DNA of 37,091 nt from a virus (IMGVR_UViG_2700989362_000003), one strand, 5' to 3'; shown: positions 15,983 to 37,091, numbered from the stretch's first letter. The notes: generated by a model not told the origin, from the sequence alone. A program made the numbers and translations.

Positions 15983-15983
15983 N
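15983..15983. other. N junction 1 (K/I 3' end joined to L interior)
   Basis: Single n. Sequence to its right restarts about 1.3 kb upstream in gene order, matching 14665 onward. Confidence 0.9.
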
Positions 15984-26102: not shown

Positions 26103-26123
26103 NNNNNNNNNNNNNNNNNNNNN
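26103..26123. other. assembly gap (21 N)
   Basis: Run of 21 n characters. Confidence 0.95.
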
Positions 26124-29720: not shown

Positions 29721-30203
29721 ATGCGTAAAGTTTGTGCAGCCATTTTGTCCGCAGCCATCTGTCTGGCCGTATCCGGTGCGCCTGCATGGGCGTCTGAACA
29801 TCAGTCCACGCTGAGCGCCGGGTATCTTCAGACCCATACTGATATGCCAGGCAGCGATGACCTGAAGGGCATTAACGTGAAATACCGTTATGAGTTTACG
29901 GATACGCTGGGGCTGGTGACGTCATTCAGCTATGCAGGAGACAAGAATCGCCAGCTGACCCGTTACAGCGATACCCGCTGGCATGAAGATTCCGTGCGTA
30001 ACCGCTGGTTCAGCGTGATGGCGGGGCCGTCTGTGCGCGTGAATGAATGGTTCAGCGCGTATGCGATGGCGGGTGTGGCTTACAGCCGTGTGTCGACTTT
30101 TTCCGGGGATTATATCCGCGTAACTGACAATAAGGGGAAAACGCACGATGTGCTGACCGGAAGTGATGACGGTCGCCACAGCAACACGTCTCTGGCGCAC
30201 TGA
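29721..30203 (+). pseudogene. lom: lom carrying an 83-bp internal deletion, frameshifted with premature stop (160 aa instead of 199)
   Basis: Co-linear with the full lom at 31012..31611 until ...SNTSLA. The 83 bp TGGGGGGCTGGCGTG...GTGGTGACTGGCG present in the full copy are missing, and a 5-bp direct repeat TGGCG flanks the deleted segment there. The frame then reads H and stops, losing the C-terminal strands and the terminal ...GYKF. Confidence 0.75.
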
Positions 30204-31011: not shown

Positions 31012-31611
31012 ATGCGTAAAGTTTGTGCAGCCATTTTGTCCGCAGCCATCTGTCTGGCCGTATCCGGTGCGCCTGCATGGGCGTCTGAACATCAGTCCAC
31101 GCTGAGCGCCGGGTATCTTCAGACCCATACTGATATGCCAGGCAGCGATGACCTGAAGGGCATTAACGTGAAATACCGTTATGAGTTTACGGACACGCTG
31201 GGGCTGATTACGTCATTCAGTTATGCCAACGCTGAAGATGAGCAAAAAACGCATTACAGCGATACCCGCTGGCATGAGGATTCCGTGCGTAACCGCTGGT
31301 TCAGCGTGATGGCGGGGCCGTCTGTGCGCGTGAATGAATGGTTCAGCGCGTATGCGATGGCGGGCGTGGCTTACAGCCGTGTGTCGACCTTCTCCGGGGA
31401 TTATCTCCGCGTAACTGACAACAAGGGGAAAACGCACGATGTGCTGACCGGAAGTGATGGCGGTCGCCACAGCAACACGTCTCTGGCGTGGGGGGCTGGC
31501 GTGCAGTTTAACCCGACCGAATCCGTGGCCATTGACCTTGCTTATGAAGGTTCCGGCAGTGGTGACTGGCGCACTGACGGTTTCATCGTGGGTGTCGGTT
31601 ATAAATTCTGA
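31012..31611 (+). CDS. lom: outer membrane protein Lom (Ail/Lom family), full length 199 aa, loop variant 3
   Basis: Signal peptide plus beta-barrel OMP signature ending ...DWRTDGFIVGVGYKF. Has a loop-2 variant SFSYANAEDEQKTHYSD versus SFSYAGDKNRQLTRYSD in the other copies. Confidence 0.9.
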   Translation: MRKVCAAILSAAICLAVSGAPAWASEHQSTLSAGYLQTHTDMPGSDDLKGINVKYRYEFTDTLGLITSFSYANAEDEQKTHYSDTRWHEDSVRNRWFSVMAGPSVRVNEWFSAYAMAGVAYSRVSTFSGDYLRVTDNKGKTHDVLTGSDGGRHSNTSLAWGAGVQFNPTESVAIDLAYEGSGSGDWRTDGFIVGVGYKF

Positions 31612-31675: not shown

Positions 31676-32002
31676 ATGGCAGTAAAGATTTCAGGTGTAC
31701 TGAAAGATGGGGCGGGGAAACCTGTCGTAAATTGTGCGATTGAACTGCGGGCCAGAAGAACCAGTCCGACCGTTGTGGCACACGTTGTTGCCACTTGCGT
31801 GACGGACAATAACGGTGCTTATGTGATTGAGGCTGAGCCGGGGTATTACGAGGTTGCGCTTCACTGTAACGGCTGGCAGCCAACCCGTGTCGGGGATATT
31901 GATGTGGCACCGACTGATGCACCGGGGACACTGAACGCGTTTCTGAATGCACCAAAGGATGGTGATTTACGTCCGGAGGTGATGAAGTGTCAGCGCCAGT
32001 GA
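31676..32002 (+). pseudogene. stf: second stf allele (divergent N-terminal domain), truncated after about 108 codons, apparently by an IS insertion
   Basis: [102 protein letters not shown], then MKCQRQ-stop. It is followed by non-stf sequence that encodes a transposase N-terminus. Confidence 0.7.
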
Positions 32003-32088
32003 TATAAGACGGTAATTCGCCATTTGGATTGTCCGCTCCACCCAACATGTTGTTTCCTTAAGGTTCTCACACCAGAAAGGACATCAAC

Positions 32089-32231
32089 ATGCTGAGCAGA
32101 GAGGACTTTTACATGATAAAGCAAATGCGCCAGCAGGGCGCGTACATCGTCGATATTGCGACTCAGATTGGTTGCTCTGAACGGACGGTCAGACGCTACC
32201 TCAAATACCCTGAACCGCCAGCCAGAAAGAC
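32089..32231 (+). mobile_element. IS21-family-like transposase (IstA-type) 5' fragment, truncated at N junction. The IS left boundary is uncertain, possibly near 31988 (TGTCAG...)
   Basis: MLSREDFYMIKQMRQQGAYIVDIATQIGCSERTVRRYLKYPEPPARK has an N-terminal helix-turn-helix with the pattern seen in IS21-family IstA proteins (compare IS100 ...[39 protein letters not shown] from memory). Confidence 0.5.
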
Positions 32232-32232
32232 N
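32232..32232. other. N junction 8 (IS fragment joined to lom interior)
   Basis: Single n followed by lom-internal sequence (TSFSYAGDKNRQLTRYSD...). Confidence 0.9.
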
Positions 32233-32517
32233 ACGTCATTCAGCTATGCAGGAGACAAGAATCGCCAGCTGACCCGTTACAGCGATACCCGCTGGCATGA
32301 AGATTCCGTGCGTAACCGCTGGTTCAGCGTGATGGCGGGGCCGTCTGTGCGCGTGAATGAATGGTTCAGCGCGTATGCGATGGCGGGTGTGGCTTACAGC
32401 CGTGTGTCGACCTTCTCCGGGGATTATCTCCGCGTAACTGACAACAAGGGGAAAACGCACGATGTGCTGACCGGAAGTGATGACGGTCGCCACAGCAACA
32501 CGTCTCTGGCGCACTGA
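32233..32517 (+). pseudogene. lom: lom 3' fragment carrying the same 83-bp deletion as 29721..30203
   Basis: Reads ...SNTSLAH-stop, as in the copy at 29721..30203. The original lom stop and terminator follow downstream. Confidence 0.75.
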
Positions 32518-32615
32518 CGGTTTCATCGTGGGTGTCGGTTATAAATTCTGATTAGCCAGGTAACACAGTGTTATGACAGCCCGCCGGTTCAGGCGGGCTT
32601 TTTTGTGGGGTGAAT

Positions 32616-35600
32616 ATGGCAGTAAAGATTTCAGGTGTACTGAAAGACGGCACAGGAAAACCGGTACAGAACTGCACAATCCAGCTGAAAGCAAAACGTA
32701 ACAGCACCACGGTGGTGGTGAACACGCTGGCCTCAGAAAATCCGGATGAAGCCGGGCGTTACAGCATGGACGTTGAGTACGGTCAGTACAGCGTTATTCT
32801 GTTGGTGGAAGGATTCCCGCCGTCACATGCCGGGACCATCACCGTGTATGAAGATTCCCGACCCGGTACGCTGAATGATTTTCTCGGTGCCATGACGGAG
32901 GATGATGCCCGTCCGGAGGCACTGCGCCGTTTTGAGCTGATGGTGGAAGAGGTGGCGCGTAACGCGTCCGCGGTGGCACAGAACACGGCAGCCGCGAAGA
33001 AATCAGCCAGCGATGCCAGCACATCAGCCCGTGAGGCGGCAACCCATGCGACTGATGCTGCAGATTCAGCACGTGCAGCCAGCACGTCAGCCGGACAGGC
33101 CGCTTCGTCGGCTCAGTCAGCGTCTTCCAGCGCAGGAACGGCATCAACAAAGGCCACTGAAGCCTCAAAAAGTGCTGCCGCTGCAGAGTCCTCAAAAAGC
33201 GCGGCGGCTACCAGTGCCGGTGCGGCGAAAACGTTAGAAACGAATGCGGCAGCGTCACAACAATCAGCAGCCACTTCTGCATCCACCGCGACCACGAAAG
33301 CGTCAGAAGCTGCCACCTCAGCCCGGGATGCGTCGGCTTCAAAAGAGGCGGCAAAATCATCAGAAACGAACGCATCATCAAGCGCCAGTAGCGCAGCTTC
33401 CTCGGCGACGGCGGCTGCAAATTCTGCGAAGGCGGCCAAAACGTCCGAGACGAACGCCAGGTCTTCTGAAACGGCAGCGGGACAGAGTGCCTCAGCTGCG
33501 GCAGGCTCAAAAACAGCGGCTGCGTCGTCTGCCAGCGCCGCGTCAACAAGTGCCGGGCAGGCCTCAGCCAGTGCCACCGCCGCCGGAAAATCGGCAGAAA
33601 GCGCCGCATCATCCGCTTCAACAGCCACAACGAAGGCTGGCGAAGCCACTGAGCAGGCCACGGCAGCAGCGAGGTCAGCTTCCGCAGCGAAGACATCCGA
33701 AACGAACGCGAAAGCGTCGGAAACCCGTGCAGAATCCTCAAAAACGGCTGCCGCATCGTCCGCCAGTTCGGCGGCGTCATCGGCATCATCGGCGTCTGCT
33801 TCAAAAGATGAGGCGACCAGACAGGCGTCAGCAGCGAAGGGCAGCGCCACGACGGCATCCACGAAGGCGACAGAGGCTGCTGGTAGTGCGACGGCAGCAG
33901 CTCAGAGCAAAAGTACGGCGGAATCTGCAGCAACGCGCGCTGAGACAGCGGCAAAACGGGCAGAGGATATTGCATCCGCCGTGGCGCTTGAGGATGCGAG
34001 CACGACGAAAAAGGGGATAGTACAGCTCAGTAGTGCGACTAACAGCACTTCCGAGTCACTGGCGGCAACACCAAAAGCCGTTAAGGCCGCGTATGACCTG
34101 GCTAACGGGAAATACACCGCACAGGATGCAACGACAGCACAGAAAGGGATAATCCAGCTAAGCAGCGCGACCAACAGCACGTCTGAAACGCTGGCGGCAA
34201 CGCCAAAGGCAGTAAAAGCAGCCAATGACAATGCTGAGAAACGTCTGCAGAAAGATCAGAACGGTGCGGATATCCCTGGCAAAGACACCTTTACGAAAAA
34301 TATTGGTGCCTGCCGTGCCTTCGGTGGGTCAGTAAGCACAACAACAGGAAACTGGACGACTGCACAGTTTATCGAGTGGCTGGATTCTCAGGGAGCATTT
34401 AACCATCCATACTGGATGTGCAAGGGTTCCTGGTCTTATGGCAATAATAAAATCATTACTGATACTGGCTGCGGTAATATTCATCTCGCCGGAGCTGTCA
34501 TTGAAGTAATGGGGATAAAGTCAGCGATGACGATCCGCATTACCACTCCGACCACATCCAGCGGTGGCGGAACAACCAACGCCCAGTTTACCTATATTAA
34601 TCACGGAACAGATTATTCACCTGGCTGGCGAAGGGACTATAACTCCAGAAATAAGCCAACGGCATCAGAGATCGGGGCGCTACCGTCAGGTGGAACAGCA
34701 GTATCATCAGTTAATCTGGCTTCAAAAGGTCGGGTAGCCGCGCTGACAGACAATACGCAGGGGGCAGCAGGTCTTGAGTTATACGAGGTGTATAACAACG
34801 GATATCCAACAGCGTATGGAAATATCATTCACCTGAAAGGGATGACAGCCGTTGGCGAAGGTGAGTTACTCATCGGCTGGGGGGGGACAAGCGGGGCTCA
34901 TGCTCCGGCATTTATTCGTTCACGACGGGATACGACCGACGCAAACTGGTCGCCGTGGGCGCAGCTTTACACCTCGGCTCATCCTCCTGCAGAGTTTTAT
35001 CCAGTCGGTGCACCAATCCCGTGGCCATCAGATACCGTTCCGTCTGGTTATGCCCTGATGCAGGGGCAGACTTTTGACAAATCTGCTTACCCGAAACTTG
35101 CAGCCGCTTATCCGTCAGGCGTGATCCCTGATATGCGTGGCTGGACGATTAAGGGCAAGCCCGCCAGTGGTCGTGCCGTATTGTCTCAGGAACAGGATGG
35201 CATTAAATCGCACACCCACAGCGCCAGCGCATCCAGTACGGATTTGGGGACGAAAACCACATCGTCGTTTGATTACGGCACTAAATCCACGAATAACACC
35301 GGGGCGCATACGCACAGTCTGAGCGGCTCTACAAGTTCAGCTGGGGCCCACCAACATAGTCAGACTGGGCCCAGAACGAATAGCGGGAGTCAACCTACTG
35401 GAATGTTTCCGGCAGGGAGTACTCAAGTTAGCGGGACTAATCAGGTTGGTATCAGTGGCTCATTAACCAGTGGCACCTCCCAATGGGTAGGTAAATCATC
35501 TTCAGAAGGAAACCATACACACTCACTGTCCGGCACAGCAGCATCTGCGGGTGCACACGCGCATACTGTCGGTATTGGTGCTCATACGCACTCTGTTGCG

Positions 35601-35699
35601 ATTGGTTCACATGGACACACCATCACCGTTAACGCTGCTGGTAACGCGGAAAACACCGTCAAAAACATCGCATTTAACTATATTGTGAGGCTCGCATAA
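32616..35699 (+). CDS. stf: side tail fiber protein Stf, about 1027 aa
   Basis: Lambda-type Stf N-terminus, then a long Ala/Ser/Thr-rich low-complexity shaft, two copies of the tail-fiber repeat KGI(V/I)[11 protein letters not shown](S/T)[11 protein letters not shown], a roughly 300-aa Cys-containing central domain ([10 protein letters not shown]...WMCKGSW...[10 protein letters not shown]...), and a C-terminal tip with multiple HxH motifs ending ...[11 protein letters not shown]. The track ORF starts at an upstream GTG (32610). Confidence 0.9.
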
Positions 35700-36280
35700 T
35701 GGCATTCAGAATGAGTGAACAAGCACGGACCATAAAAATTTATAACCTGCTGGCCGGAACTAATGAATTTATTGGTGAAGGTGACGCATATATTCCGCCT
35801 CATACAGGTCTGCCTGCAAACAGTACCGATATTGCACCGCCAGATATTCCGGCTGGTTTCGTGGCTGTTTTCAACAGTGATGAGTCATCGTGGCATCTCG
35901 TTGAAGATCATCGGGGTAAAACGGTTTATGACGTGGCTTCCGGCGACGCGTTATTTATTTCTGAACTCGGCTCATTACCGGAAAATGTCACCTGGTTATC
36001 CCCGGAAGGGGAGTTTCAGAAGTGGAACGGCACAGCCTGGGTGAAGGATACGGAAGCAGAAAAACTGTTCCGGATCCGGGAGGCGGAAGAAACAAAAAAC
36101 AGCCTGATGCAGGTAGCCAGTGAGCATATAGCGCCGCTTCAGGATGCTGTGGATCTGGAGATCGCAACGGAGAAAGAAACCTTGTTGCTGGAAGCTTGGA
36201 AAAAGTATCGGGTGTTGCTGAACCGTGTTGATACATCAACTGCACCGGATATTGAATGGCCAGTAGCACCTATAGGGTAA
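35699..36280 (+). CDS. tfa: tail fiber assembly chaperone Tfa
   Basis: 193-aa [57 protein letters not shown]..., overlapping the stf stop in a TAATG arrangement. Near-identical to lambda Tfa as I recall it. Confidence 0.9.
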
Positions 36281-36363
36281 ATTCGTAATGATTACCTAAA
36301 TACGTTATTCTTTTGTTAAAAAAGTGATTTTGCTATAGGTAGGGAGTATGTTCTTGGATTAAG

Positions 36364-36397
36364 AATAAAAAATCGCCATGAAAGAGCTTCATGGCGA
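36364..36397 (-). terminator. candidate intrinsic terminator for a minus-strand transcript
   Basis: Perfect 10-bp inverted repeat TCGCCATGAA AGAGC TTCATGGCGA (36373..36397) preceded on the plus strand by AATAAAAAA, so on the minus strand it is a hairpin followed by a U-run. Confidence 0.45.
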
Positions 36398-36545
36398 GTA
36401 CATAAACGTACAAAATGTGATGAAAGTAGAGTGGCGTAAGCCACTATATTAAGATATGACAATAGCGAAGAAAAGTAAATAACATTTTATGGACGTTTAA
36501 TTGTTAATTATAAAAACTAGAGTGCCCGATATTGTTTATCTTGCT

Positions 36546-36647
36546 TTAAAATAATGTACTCAAACCAAATTTTTGAGCTAAAAGCTCAAATAATATAAAT
36601 GCAATAATAATGTTTAATAAGACAATTAGCTTGCTTTGTATTTTCAT
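36546..36647 (-). CDS. candidate small hydrophobic protein, 33 aa (MKIQSKLIVLLNIIIAFILFELLAQKFGLSTLF)
   Basis: Hand-translated minus-strand ORF, below the 60-aa cutoff of the ORF track. Single predicted transmembrane helix. About 150 nt upstream (in transcript sense) of the minus-strand terminator. No obvious Shine-Dalgarno, and AT-rich DNA can produce such ORFs by chance. Confidence 0.3.
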   Translation of the reverse strand: MKIQSKLIVLLNIIIAFILFELLAQKFGLSTLF

Positions 36648-37029
36648 TTCGGAATACTGTTAAGTAACTTTGATGACCCTAACAATAGATCGGAATTTTC
36701 TTAGAGTCAATGGTCACTGTTTTTGCTTGCAAAGCAAATGTTTTGGTGGTTATAAGTCGTCTTAATATAGTCACGCATGCAACTTGTTCCATGCGGAGAT
36801 TAAAGATTGGAATATAACGCGAAGATGGAATTAAATTACATTTGCAATAATTAATTTATTATTACTCAATAATTACCGATATTATTATTGTAAATTAATC
36901 ATTAGAATGCAAAAAGAAATGTAACGGCAAAATAAGAGGACGATAGCTGAGAAAAAAGCGTGCTTTCCCAATCTGGGGCAAATCACGTCTGAATGACACC
37001 TGAAAACAGGTGGTAGCCTCAAGAAGGCT

Positions 37030-37091
37030 GGTGATGCTGCCAACTTACTGATTTAGTGTATGATGGTGTTTTTGAGGTGCTCCAGTGGCTT
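37030..37091 (+). mobile_element. IS1 left end (terminal inverted repeat plus first 62 bp), running off the window
   Basis: GGTGATGCTGCCAACTTACTGATTTAGTGTATGATGGTGTTTTTGAGGTGCTCCAGTGGCTT matches the IS1 left end, including the start of insA (GTGGCTT...), as I recall it. Confidence 0.8.

Follow-up and report, generated by a model that had tools for sequence, protein, structure and literature searches.

The viral sequence IMGVR_UViG_2700989362_000003 (37,091 nucleotides, one strand; hereafter the window, with positions counted from its first letter) carries towards its end a long open reading frame (ORF), stf. We read it as the gene of the side tail fiber (Stf) of a lambda-like Escherichia coli prophage, paired with the assembly chaperone Tfa and built as a mosaic of four known modules, a reading to which we give a probability of about 0.92. 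The frame is unbroken on the + strand from 32610 (GTG) or 32616 (ATG) to 35699. Starting at the ATG, it yields a protein of 1027 residues that begins MAVKISG, exactly as does the lambda Stf of Protein Data Bank (PDB) entry 9e7m. The features of the gene, followed by those of its two neighbours, are as follows.

32616..35699, + strand: stf, side tail fiber gene, 1027 residues plus stop (ORF; Pfam phage_tail_N, Phage_fiber_2 twice, Collar)
32616..32897, + strand: N-terminal tail-attachment (collar-forming) domain, residues 1-94 (phmmer match to the lambda Stf N-terminal chain 9e7m/9mgh)
32919..33986, + strand: proximal coiled-coil shaft, residues 102-457, about 51 heptads, 72% Ala/Ser/Thr (heptad autocorrelation; collinear with lambda residues 102-393)
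33525..33839, + strand: segment within the shaft (alignments with lambda Stf and K-12 StfR)
33999..34259, + strand: two tandem 44-residue Phage_fiber_2 repeats (residues ~462-548), then a conserved NGADIPxK linker
34272..34685, + strand: subdomain D1 of the central module, residues 553-690, with Cys 566, 602 and 619; Mu S'-type
34686..34994, + strand: subdomain D2 of the central module, residues 691-793, ending in FxRSxRD...W..xYT; collinear with Mu gp52 residues ~165-250
34995..35696, + strand: gp37-type distal tip, residues 794-1027, with collar, needle bearing seven HxH sites, and head (2XGF match; Pfam Collar)
35358..35513, + strand: hypervariable head loop between the third and fourth HxH, residues 915-966, presumed receptor contact
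35699..36280, + strand: tfa, tail fiber assembly chaperone, 193 residues, its start overlapping the stf stop (Pfam Caudo_TAP, 4.6e-44)
32233..32517, + strand: lom 3' fragment at the start of the contig, directly upstream of stf (Pfam Ail_Lom, 2.9e-51; N at 32232)

A side tail fiber of ordinary type

Pfam places PF08400 (phage_tail_N) on residues 1-134 with an expectation value (E) of 1.4e-71. Sequence searches of the PDB returned three partners for three parts of the protein: lambda Stf (9e7m, E 1.4e-51), the phage Mu fiber S/S' (8JU3, E 2e-69) and the tip of T4 gp37 (2XGF, E 5.7e-81). In the first of these matches 88 of the 94 N-terminal residues are identical, and residues 1-91 of the Stf of Ur-lambda form a dodecameric collar at the site where gpV meets gpM (PMC12617516). 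Homologues annotated as 'side tail fiber protein' are 93-98% identical to the protein, isolated phages with this architecture have their fiber annotated under that name, and the Tfa encoded next to it shares 93% identity with lambda Tfa and 94% with TfaR. NCBIfam has no family for Stf or Tfa; nothing was found that contradicts the identification. An earlier note, made on this DNA before any database was searched, had already named the gene a side tail fiber, as the PF08400 match and the downstream tfa confirm, and had judged it some 250 residues longer than the lambda protein; against the 774 residues of Ur-lambda Stf the excess is 253.

The type of fiber is ordinary and already known. Its architecture, counted when at least 80% of the query is covered, occurs in 636 of 5426 complete E. 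coli genomes. The fibers of mEp460_ev081 (LR597641), PhiR68_2 (PV340576), PhiR42_1, PhiR26_1 and the SE11 and ST70 prophages have the same module order and lengths, at 94-95% amino acid identity, and differ from ours in the head loop alone (residues ~912-966, where DNA identity falls to 46-47%). What is individual here is only a rare allele of the head and a particular combination of modules.

Two further fibers of the family invite comparison. Ur-lambda Stf, 73% identical over the aligned positions, shares the N-terminal collar domain, the coiled-coil shaft, one Phage_fiber_2 repeat, the gp37-type tip with HxH motifs, and Tfa. It lacks, however, fifteen heptads of the shaft and the second repeat, and it has an unrelated stretch of about 130 residues between repeat and tip, where the window has a Mu S'-type module; residues 462-793 of our protein align opposite the lambda hinge and distal region. 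Lambda further exceeds our protein by one FDYGTK repeat and one HxH unit in the needle, and the head loops differ. StfR of the K-12 Rac prophage (1120 residues) has an identical N-terminus and an identical shaft length, the same tip framework and a Tfa, but a single repeat, a different central module of about 390 residues and a different head loop.

Shaft, repeats and central module

Over residues 121-450, about 330 in all, Ala, Ser and Thr together make up at least 60% of 30-residue spans, as the earlier note had described; it was also right that this composition is accompanied by overlapping ORFs in other frames (249-258 residues, over 33113-34020). Its further description of an expanded, low-complexity repeat tract does not hold. 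The autocorrelation of the protein sequence reaches 0.37-0.43 at lags 7, 14 and so on up to 56, against about 0.18 elsewhere, so that the segment, far from unstructured, is strictly heptad-periodic, while on the DNA the Tandem Repeats Finder saw just two trivial arrays of 22-26 nucleotides. Because the autocorrelation peaks at each multiple of seven, the shaft is best understood as a continuous coiled coil with a core of small residues (Ala/Ser); the homologous lambda segment, residues 102-393, is the proximal coiled coil of a trimeric fiber (PMC12617516). If the rise is canonical, the shaft would be about 53 nm long. Nor is it expanded: alignments give the same length in K-12 StfR, mEp460_ev081, PhiR68_2, SE11 and ST70, and it is lambda that has the short one. 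With respect to lambda there is one extra block of exactly 105 residues, roughly 15 nm, and since this amounts to exactly fifteen heptads, the heptad phase is kept.

Beyond the shaft, the two tail-fiber repeats that the earlier note had seen correspond to two Phage_fiber_2 domains of Pfam. There follows the domain which that note had singled out as an insert of some 300 residues with four cysteines, foreign to lambda and perhaps endowed with a binding or enzymatic function. A distinct domain is indeed there, and the alignment with lambda Stf confirms that lambda lacks it; yet it measures about 240 residues (~553-793) and holds three cysteines (566, 602 and 619), the fourth of the protein, C20, lying in the N-terminal domain. 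It is, moreover, no novelty. Residues 539-723 account for the match to 8JU3, which is the Mu(-) fiber gp52 (PMC11821841), and direct comparison with gp52 (E 5e-79) is collinear up to gp52 residue 250, beginning at the linker [20 protein letters not shown]. Along this path the linker and D1 are about 80% identical to Mu S'; D2 is collinear with weak similarity and closes with the FxRSxRD...W..xYT motif, which Mu S' has too. An AlphaFold2 (AF2) model of the monomer over residues 540-795 has a mean predicted local distance difference test (pLDDT) score of 63, with D1 at about 80-88 and D2 at 35-65, and the fold of D2 is not established. Used as a Foldseek query, this model retrieved 8JU3 (E 3.2e-19), the next match standing at 0.14; apart from 8JU3, fold searches with it returned nothing significant and nothing enzymatic.

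The same module is met in many places. Absent from lambda and StfR, it is present in the isolated lambdoid phages mEp460, PhiR68_2, PhiR42_1 and PhiR26_1, and homologues belong to fibers of Escherichia, Shigella, Salmonella, Yersinia, Photorhabdus, Enterobacter and Acinetobacter. Profiles of the PHROG collection match D1 and D2 separately, inside several long tail-fiber families, phrog_22609, phrog_3299 and phrog_37852 matching D2 at internal positions (E 1e-42 to 5e-74). The search for homologous proteins returned just proteins shorter than 450 residues, mostly partial, which give no basis for a distribution of full-length fiber lengths. In StfR, too, the central module, although a different one, finishes with the end motif of D2, and D2 weakly resembles StfR residues 876-904, the last 30 or so residues of that module (BLASTP E 0.005). 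StfR might have been expected to carry the same cysteine-containing module; alignment and BLASTP show another, larger one, similar in its last 30 residues only. The central module is, then, a standard and widely shuffled component of fiber bodies, known from Mu S', from isolated phages and from the 636 genomes mentioned above, rather than an unknown insert; this is the outcome that the earlier note had itself named as refuting its view.

Could this domain nevertheless be an inserted function, adding a second binding activity or an enzymatic one such as that of a depolymerase or an esterase? Fiber knobs of other phages are known to bind sugars laterally, the module does stand in place of a shorter, unrelated stretch of lambda Stf, and D1 is strongly conserved, C602 and C619 being at least 90% invariant among 30 homologues. 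The Mu S' fiber, for its part, recognises the inner core of lipopolysaccharide (LPS) (PMC11821841). Against this, Pfam has no family for the module and offers no enzyme or carbohydrate-binding family; its sole match, Gp34_trimer, remains at 18.3 bits, below the cut-off of 27, and neither Pfam at E up to 10 nor the PDB fold searches gave a beta-helix, SGNH, sialidase or similar catalytic family. By the PHROG families, D1 and D2 are inner parts of long fibers of several families, and the distal ~78 residues that form the tip of Mu S' are missing here, with a gp37-type tip in their place. An enzymatic role thus finds no supporting sign in these searches, and we hold an added activity of either kind to be very improbable. 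Residues 462-793 most likely act as a structural spacer or knob.

The body of the variable region of Mu S' (gp52 residues ~19-250), including the linker [20 protein letters not shown], is present in our Stf and is the only structural match to its module. Mu, however, is a contractile-tailed phage whose S' has its own N-terminal baseplate-attachment part, absent from the window, and its own tip of about 78 residues (gp52 ~250-328) served by the chaperone U', at the start of which our alignment stops. Because the window has a gp37-type tip and a lambda-type Tfa instead of the S' tip and U', the fiber shares a module with Mu S' without being a Mu S' fiber.

The distal tip and the genes around stf

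Residues 794-1027 align with the T4 gp37 tip end to end, through collar, needle and head, and Pfam recognises Collar at residues 798-845 (7e-12). There are seven HxH motifs, at residues 866, 898, 912, 967, 981, 990 and 999, all within the last 165 residues, and each of the seven is matched in T4; the likeness to gp37 that the earlier note had drawn from its HxH-rich tip is thus one of direct homology. That the tip of lambda Stf is homologous to that of T4 gp37 has long been known (PMC12617516). In T4 the HxH motifs bind seven iron ions (PMC11705849), and by analogy with that crystal structure iron may sit at the His6 sites of the predicted trimer. The head loop of our protein is 19 residues longer than that of T4, the remainder of gp37 is unrelated, and T4 uses the chaperones gp38 and gp57A where the window has a lambda-type Tfa directly downstream of stf.

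The head loop corresponds to the head domain of T4. It differs among the window, the group of mEp460, PhiR68_2 and ST70, SE11, StfR and lambda. The allele found here occurs in 25 of the 5426 complete E. coli genomes (24 identical, 1 near-identical), and a DNA search of 50,697 phage records gave no match to it; at the protein level the phage proteins closest to it, about 60% identical, are gp37 of T4-like phages. With this rare allele the fiber might recognise a receptor different from the OmpC of K-12 type, the Mu S'-type knob making a second, lateral contact to the LPS core, a proposal that we consider speculative and rather unlikely. OmpC is the receptor in lambda and T4, an identity that need not carry over to this head allele.

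The neighbourhood follows the order J - lom - stf - tfa of the reference loci, with the lom fragment and tfa in the contig of stf, and J in other contigs of the scaffold described below. Two short lom 3' copies (at 32506-32517 and 30192-30203) lack 83 nucleotides that are present in the lom of mEp460, PhiR68_2, SE11 and others; the deletion is bounded by a 6-nucleotide direct repeat, CTGGCG, and shortens the reading frame, while a full lom at 31012-31611 is intact. Downstream of tfa, the mEp460, PhiR68_2 and Rac loci have a pin-type recombinase, and Mu S' is expressed via inversion of the G segment with the Gin/Pin invertase; by contrast, 36281-37091 contains no invertase ORF and no inverted copy of tfa. 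Here AT-rich DNA of about 750 bp, present in strain BH100N as well, is followed by the end of an insertion sequence (IS), IS1A, that reaches the end of the window. In BH100N the AT-rich DNA is followed by sitABCD, and the junction with IS1A is found in 79 complete genomes.

Scaffold, prophage and the probable working of the fiber

At least ten contigs make up the window, a scaffold with nine N junctions (eight single and one run of 21) between 14665 and 32232, at 15983, 18128, 21132, 23092, 25048, 26103-26123, 28114, 30859 and 32232. After each of them the sequence restarts in a homologous L, K, I, J, lom or stf at 85-99.6% identity, and these restarts explain why J is present in five or more partial copies together with many truncated duplicate ORFs. 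Probably, a reference-guided ordering strung together several lambdoid prophages of one genome. The last contig (32233-37091) contains the whole of stf. Two other pieces of stf precede it. The segment 29919-30858, a third copy of the lom 3' and stf 5' region, is 99.6% identical over 940 nucleotides to 32233-33172 and ends with its contig in the shaft; either one locus was assembled in duplicate, or a second prophage carries an almost identical 5' half of stf. The other piece, a second copy of the stf 5' end, is divergent and 110 residues long (31676-32231; PF08400 1e-36, CarboxypepD_reg 2.6e-09). It breaks off at 32002, where it meets the end of an IS21-family element whose istA starts at 32089; many E. 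coli chromosomes and plasmids have copies 100% identical to this end.

Such a patchwork raises the question of whether the gene itself is an artefact, its length due to mis-sized repeats or its sequence to two stf alleles merged by a short-read assembler. Every N is indeed followed by a restart in homologous tail genes, and another contig ends in the shaft (30858, equivalent to 33172). The exact protein was not found by exact-sequence look-up in a collection of 15 billion proteins, nor the exact combination of modules in any of the 5426 genomes. A sliding comparison shows nucleotides 901-2250 of stf to be 99-100% identical to PhiR68_2, ST70 and SE11, and the nearest relative changes inside the conserved collar region. 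Mis-sizing, which the earlier note had feared, is however excluded: the shaft has no DNA tandem repeat, and the 2839 nucleotides of 32506-35344, which take in all of the shaft, the two repeats, the central module and the collar, align without a gap to three independent complete sequences (mEp460_ev081, 96.6%; PhiR68_2, 98.0%; ST70, 98.1%). As for a merger of alleles, natural recombination at such conserved linkers is the norm in genes of this kind, and the module is also swapped in BH100N and StfR. The switch in the collar could be a natural crossover or a short-read chimera, the architecture being unaffected in either case; on balance we regard an artefact as unlikely.

A related question is whether the prophage still functions. 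The ORF might be intact within a defective, decaying prophage, as is stfR in the Rac of K-12, and no longer serve adsorption. Just upstream, the second stf copy is truncated by the IS21-family end; 750 bp downstream there is an IS1A end; the adjoining lom fragment lacks its 83 nucleotides near the 3' end; and K-12 StfR demonstrates that genes of this kind can stay intact in cryptic prophages. Yet the 1027 codons of stf and those of tfa are unbroken, the first contig of the window has a complete-looking lambda-type set of head and tail genes (portal, tape measure, TipJ), and near-identical genes belong to inducible, isolated phages, PhiR68_2 and mEp460. The state of the scaffold, besides, prevents tying stf to a particular prophage. 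Decay of the host prophage therefore seems to us possible but doubtful, although less so than an artefact of assembly.

To be sure, three points weigh against reading stf as the mosaic fiber gene of a lambda-like prophage: IS21-family and IS1 ends flank its region; D2 is only weakly similar to Mu S' and poorly modelled; and, in a scaffold whose contigs come from several lambdoid prophages, the join in the conserved collar may have arisen as a chimera during assembly. The identification as a Tfa-paired lambdoid side tail fiber remains the reading that we prefer.

Extrapolating from its homologues, one can outline how such a fiber would work. Three chains would associate into one fiber, and twelve N-terminal domains would collar the tail where gpV joins gpM, leaving four trimeric fibers to project outward, as they do in Ur-lambda (PMC12617516). 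Coiled coil, repeats and Mu S'-type knob would hold outward a gp37-type tip that Tfa presumably helps to fold. The seven HxH motifs may form His6 metal (iron) sites on the axis of the trimer, stiffening the needle, and the loops of the head (residues 915-966) would bind a receptor of the outer membrane, allowing the phage to adsorb quickly and reversibly ahead of the contact between gpJ and its own receptor. The role of OmpC in this scheme, like the domain map of Stf, was worked out in Ur-lambda (PMC12617516).

Beyond correct annotation, the importance of the finding is small. The rare head allele may confer a different specificity for porin or LPS, and, if the Mu S'-type knob did make lateral contact with the LPS core, the fiber would be bivalent. 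The boundaries of the modules (NGADIPxK at residues ~548-555, [19 protein letters not shown] at residues ~785-803, and the HxH motifs that flank the head loop) offer natural splice points, such as serve to retarget host range with chimeric Stf proteins. In general, the gene is a further example of fiber genes built from interchangeable modules that are swapped at conserved linker motifs, across siphophages such as lambda, Mu-like myophages and the T-even phages.

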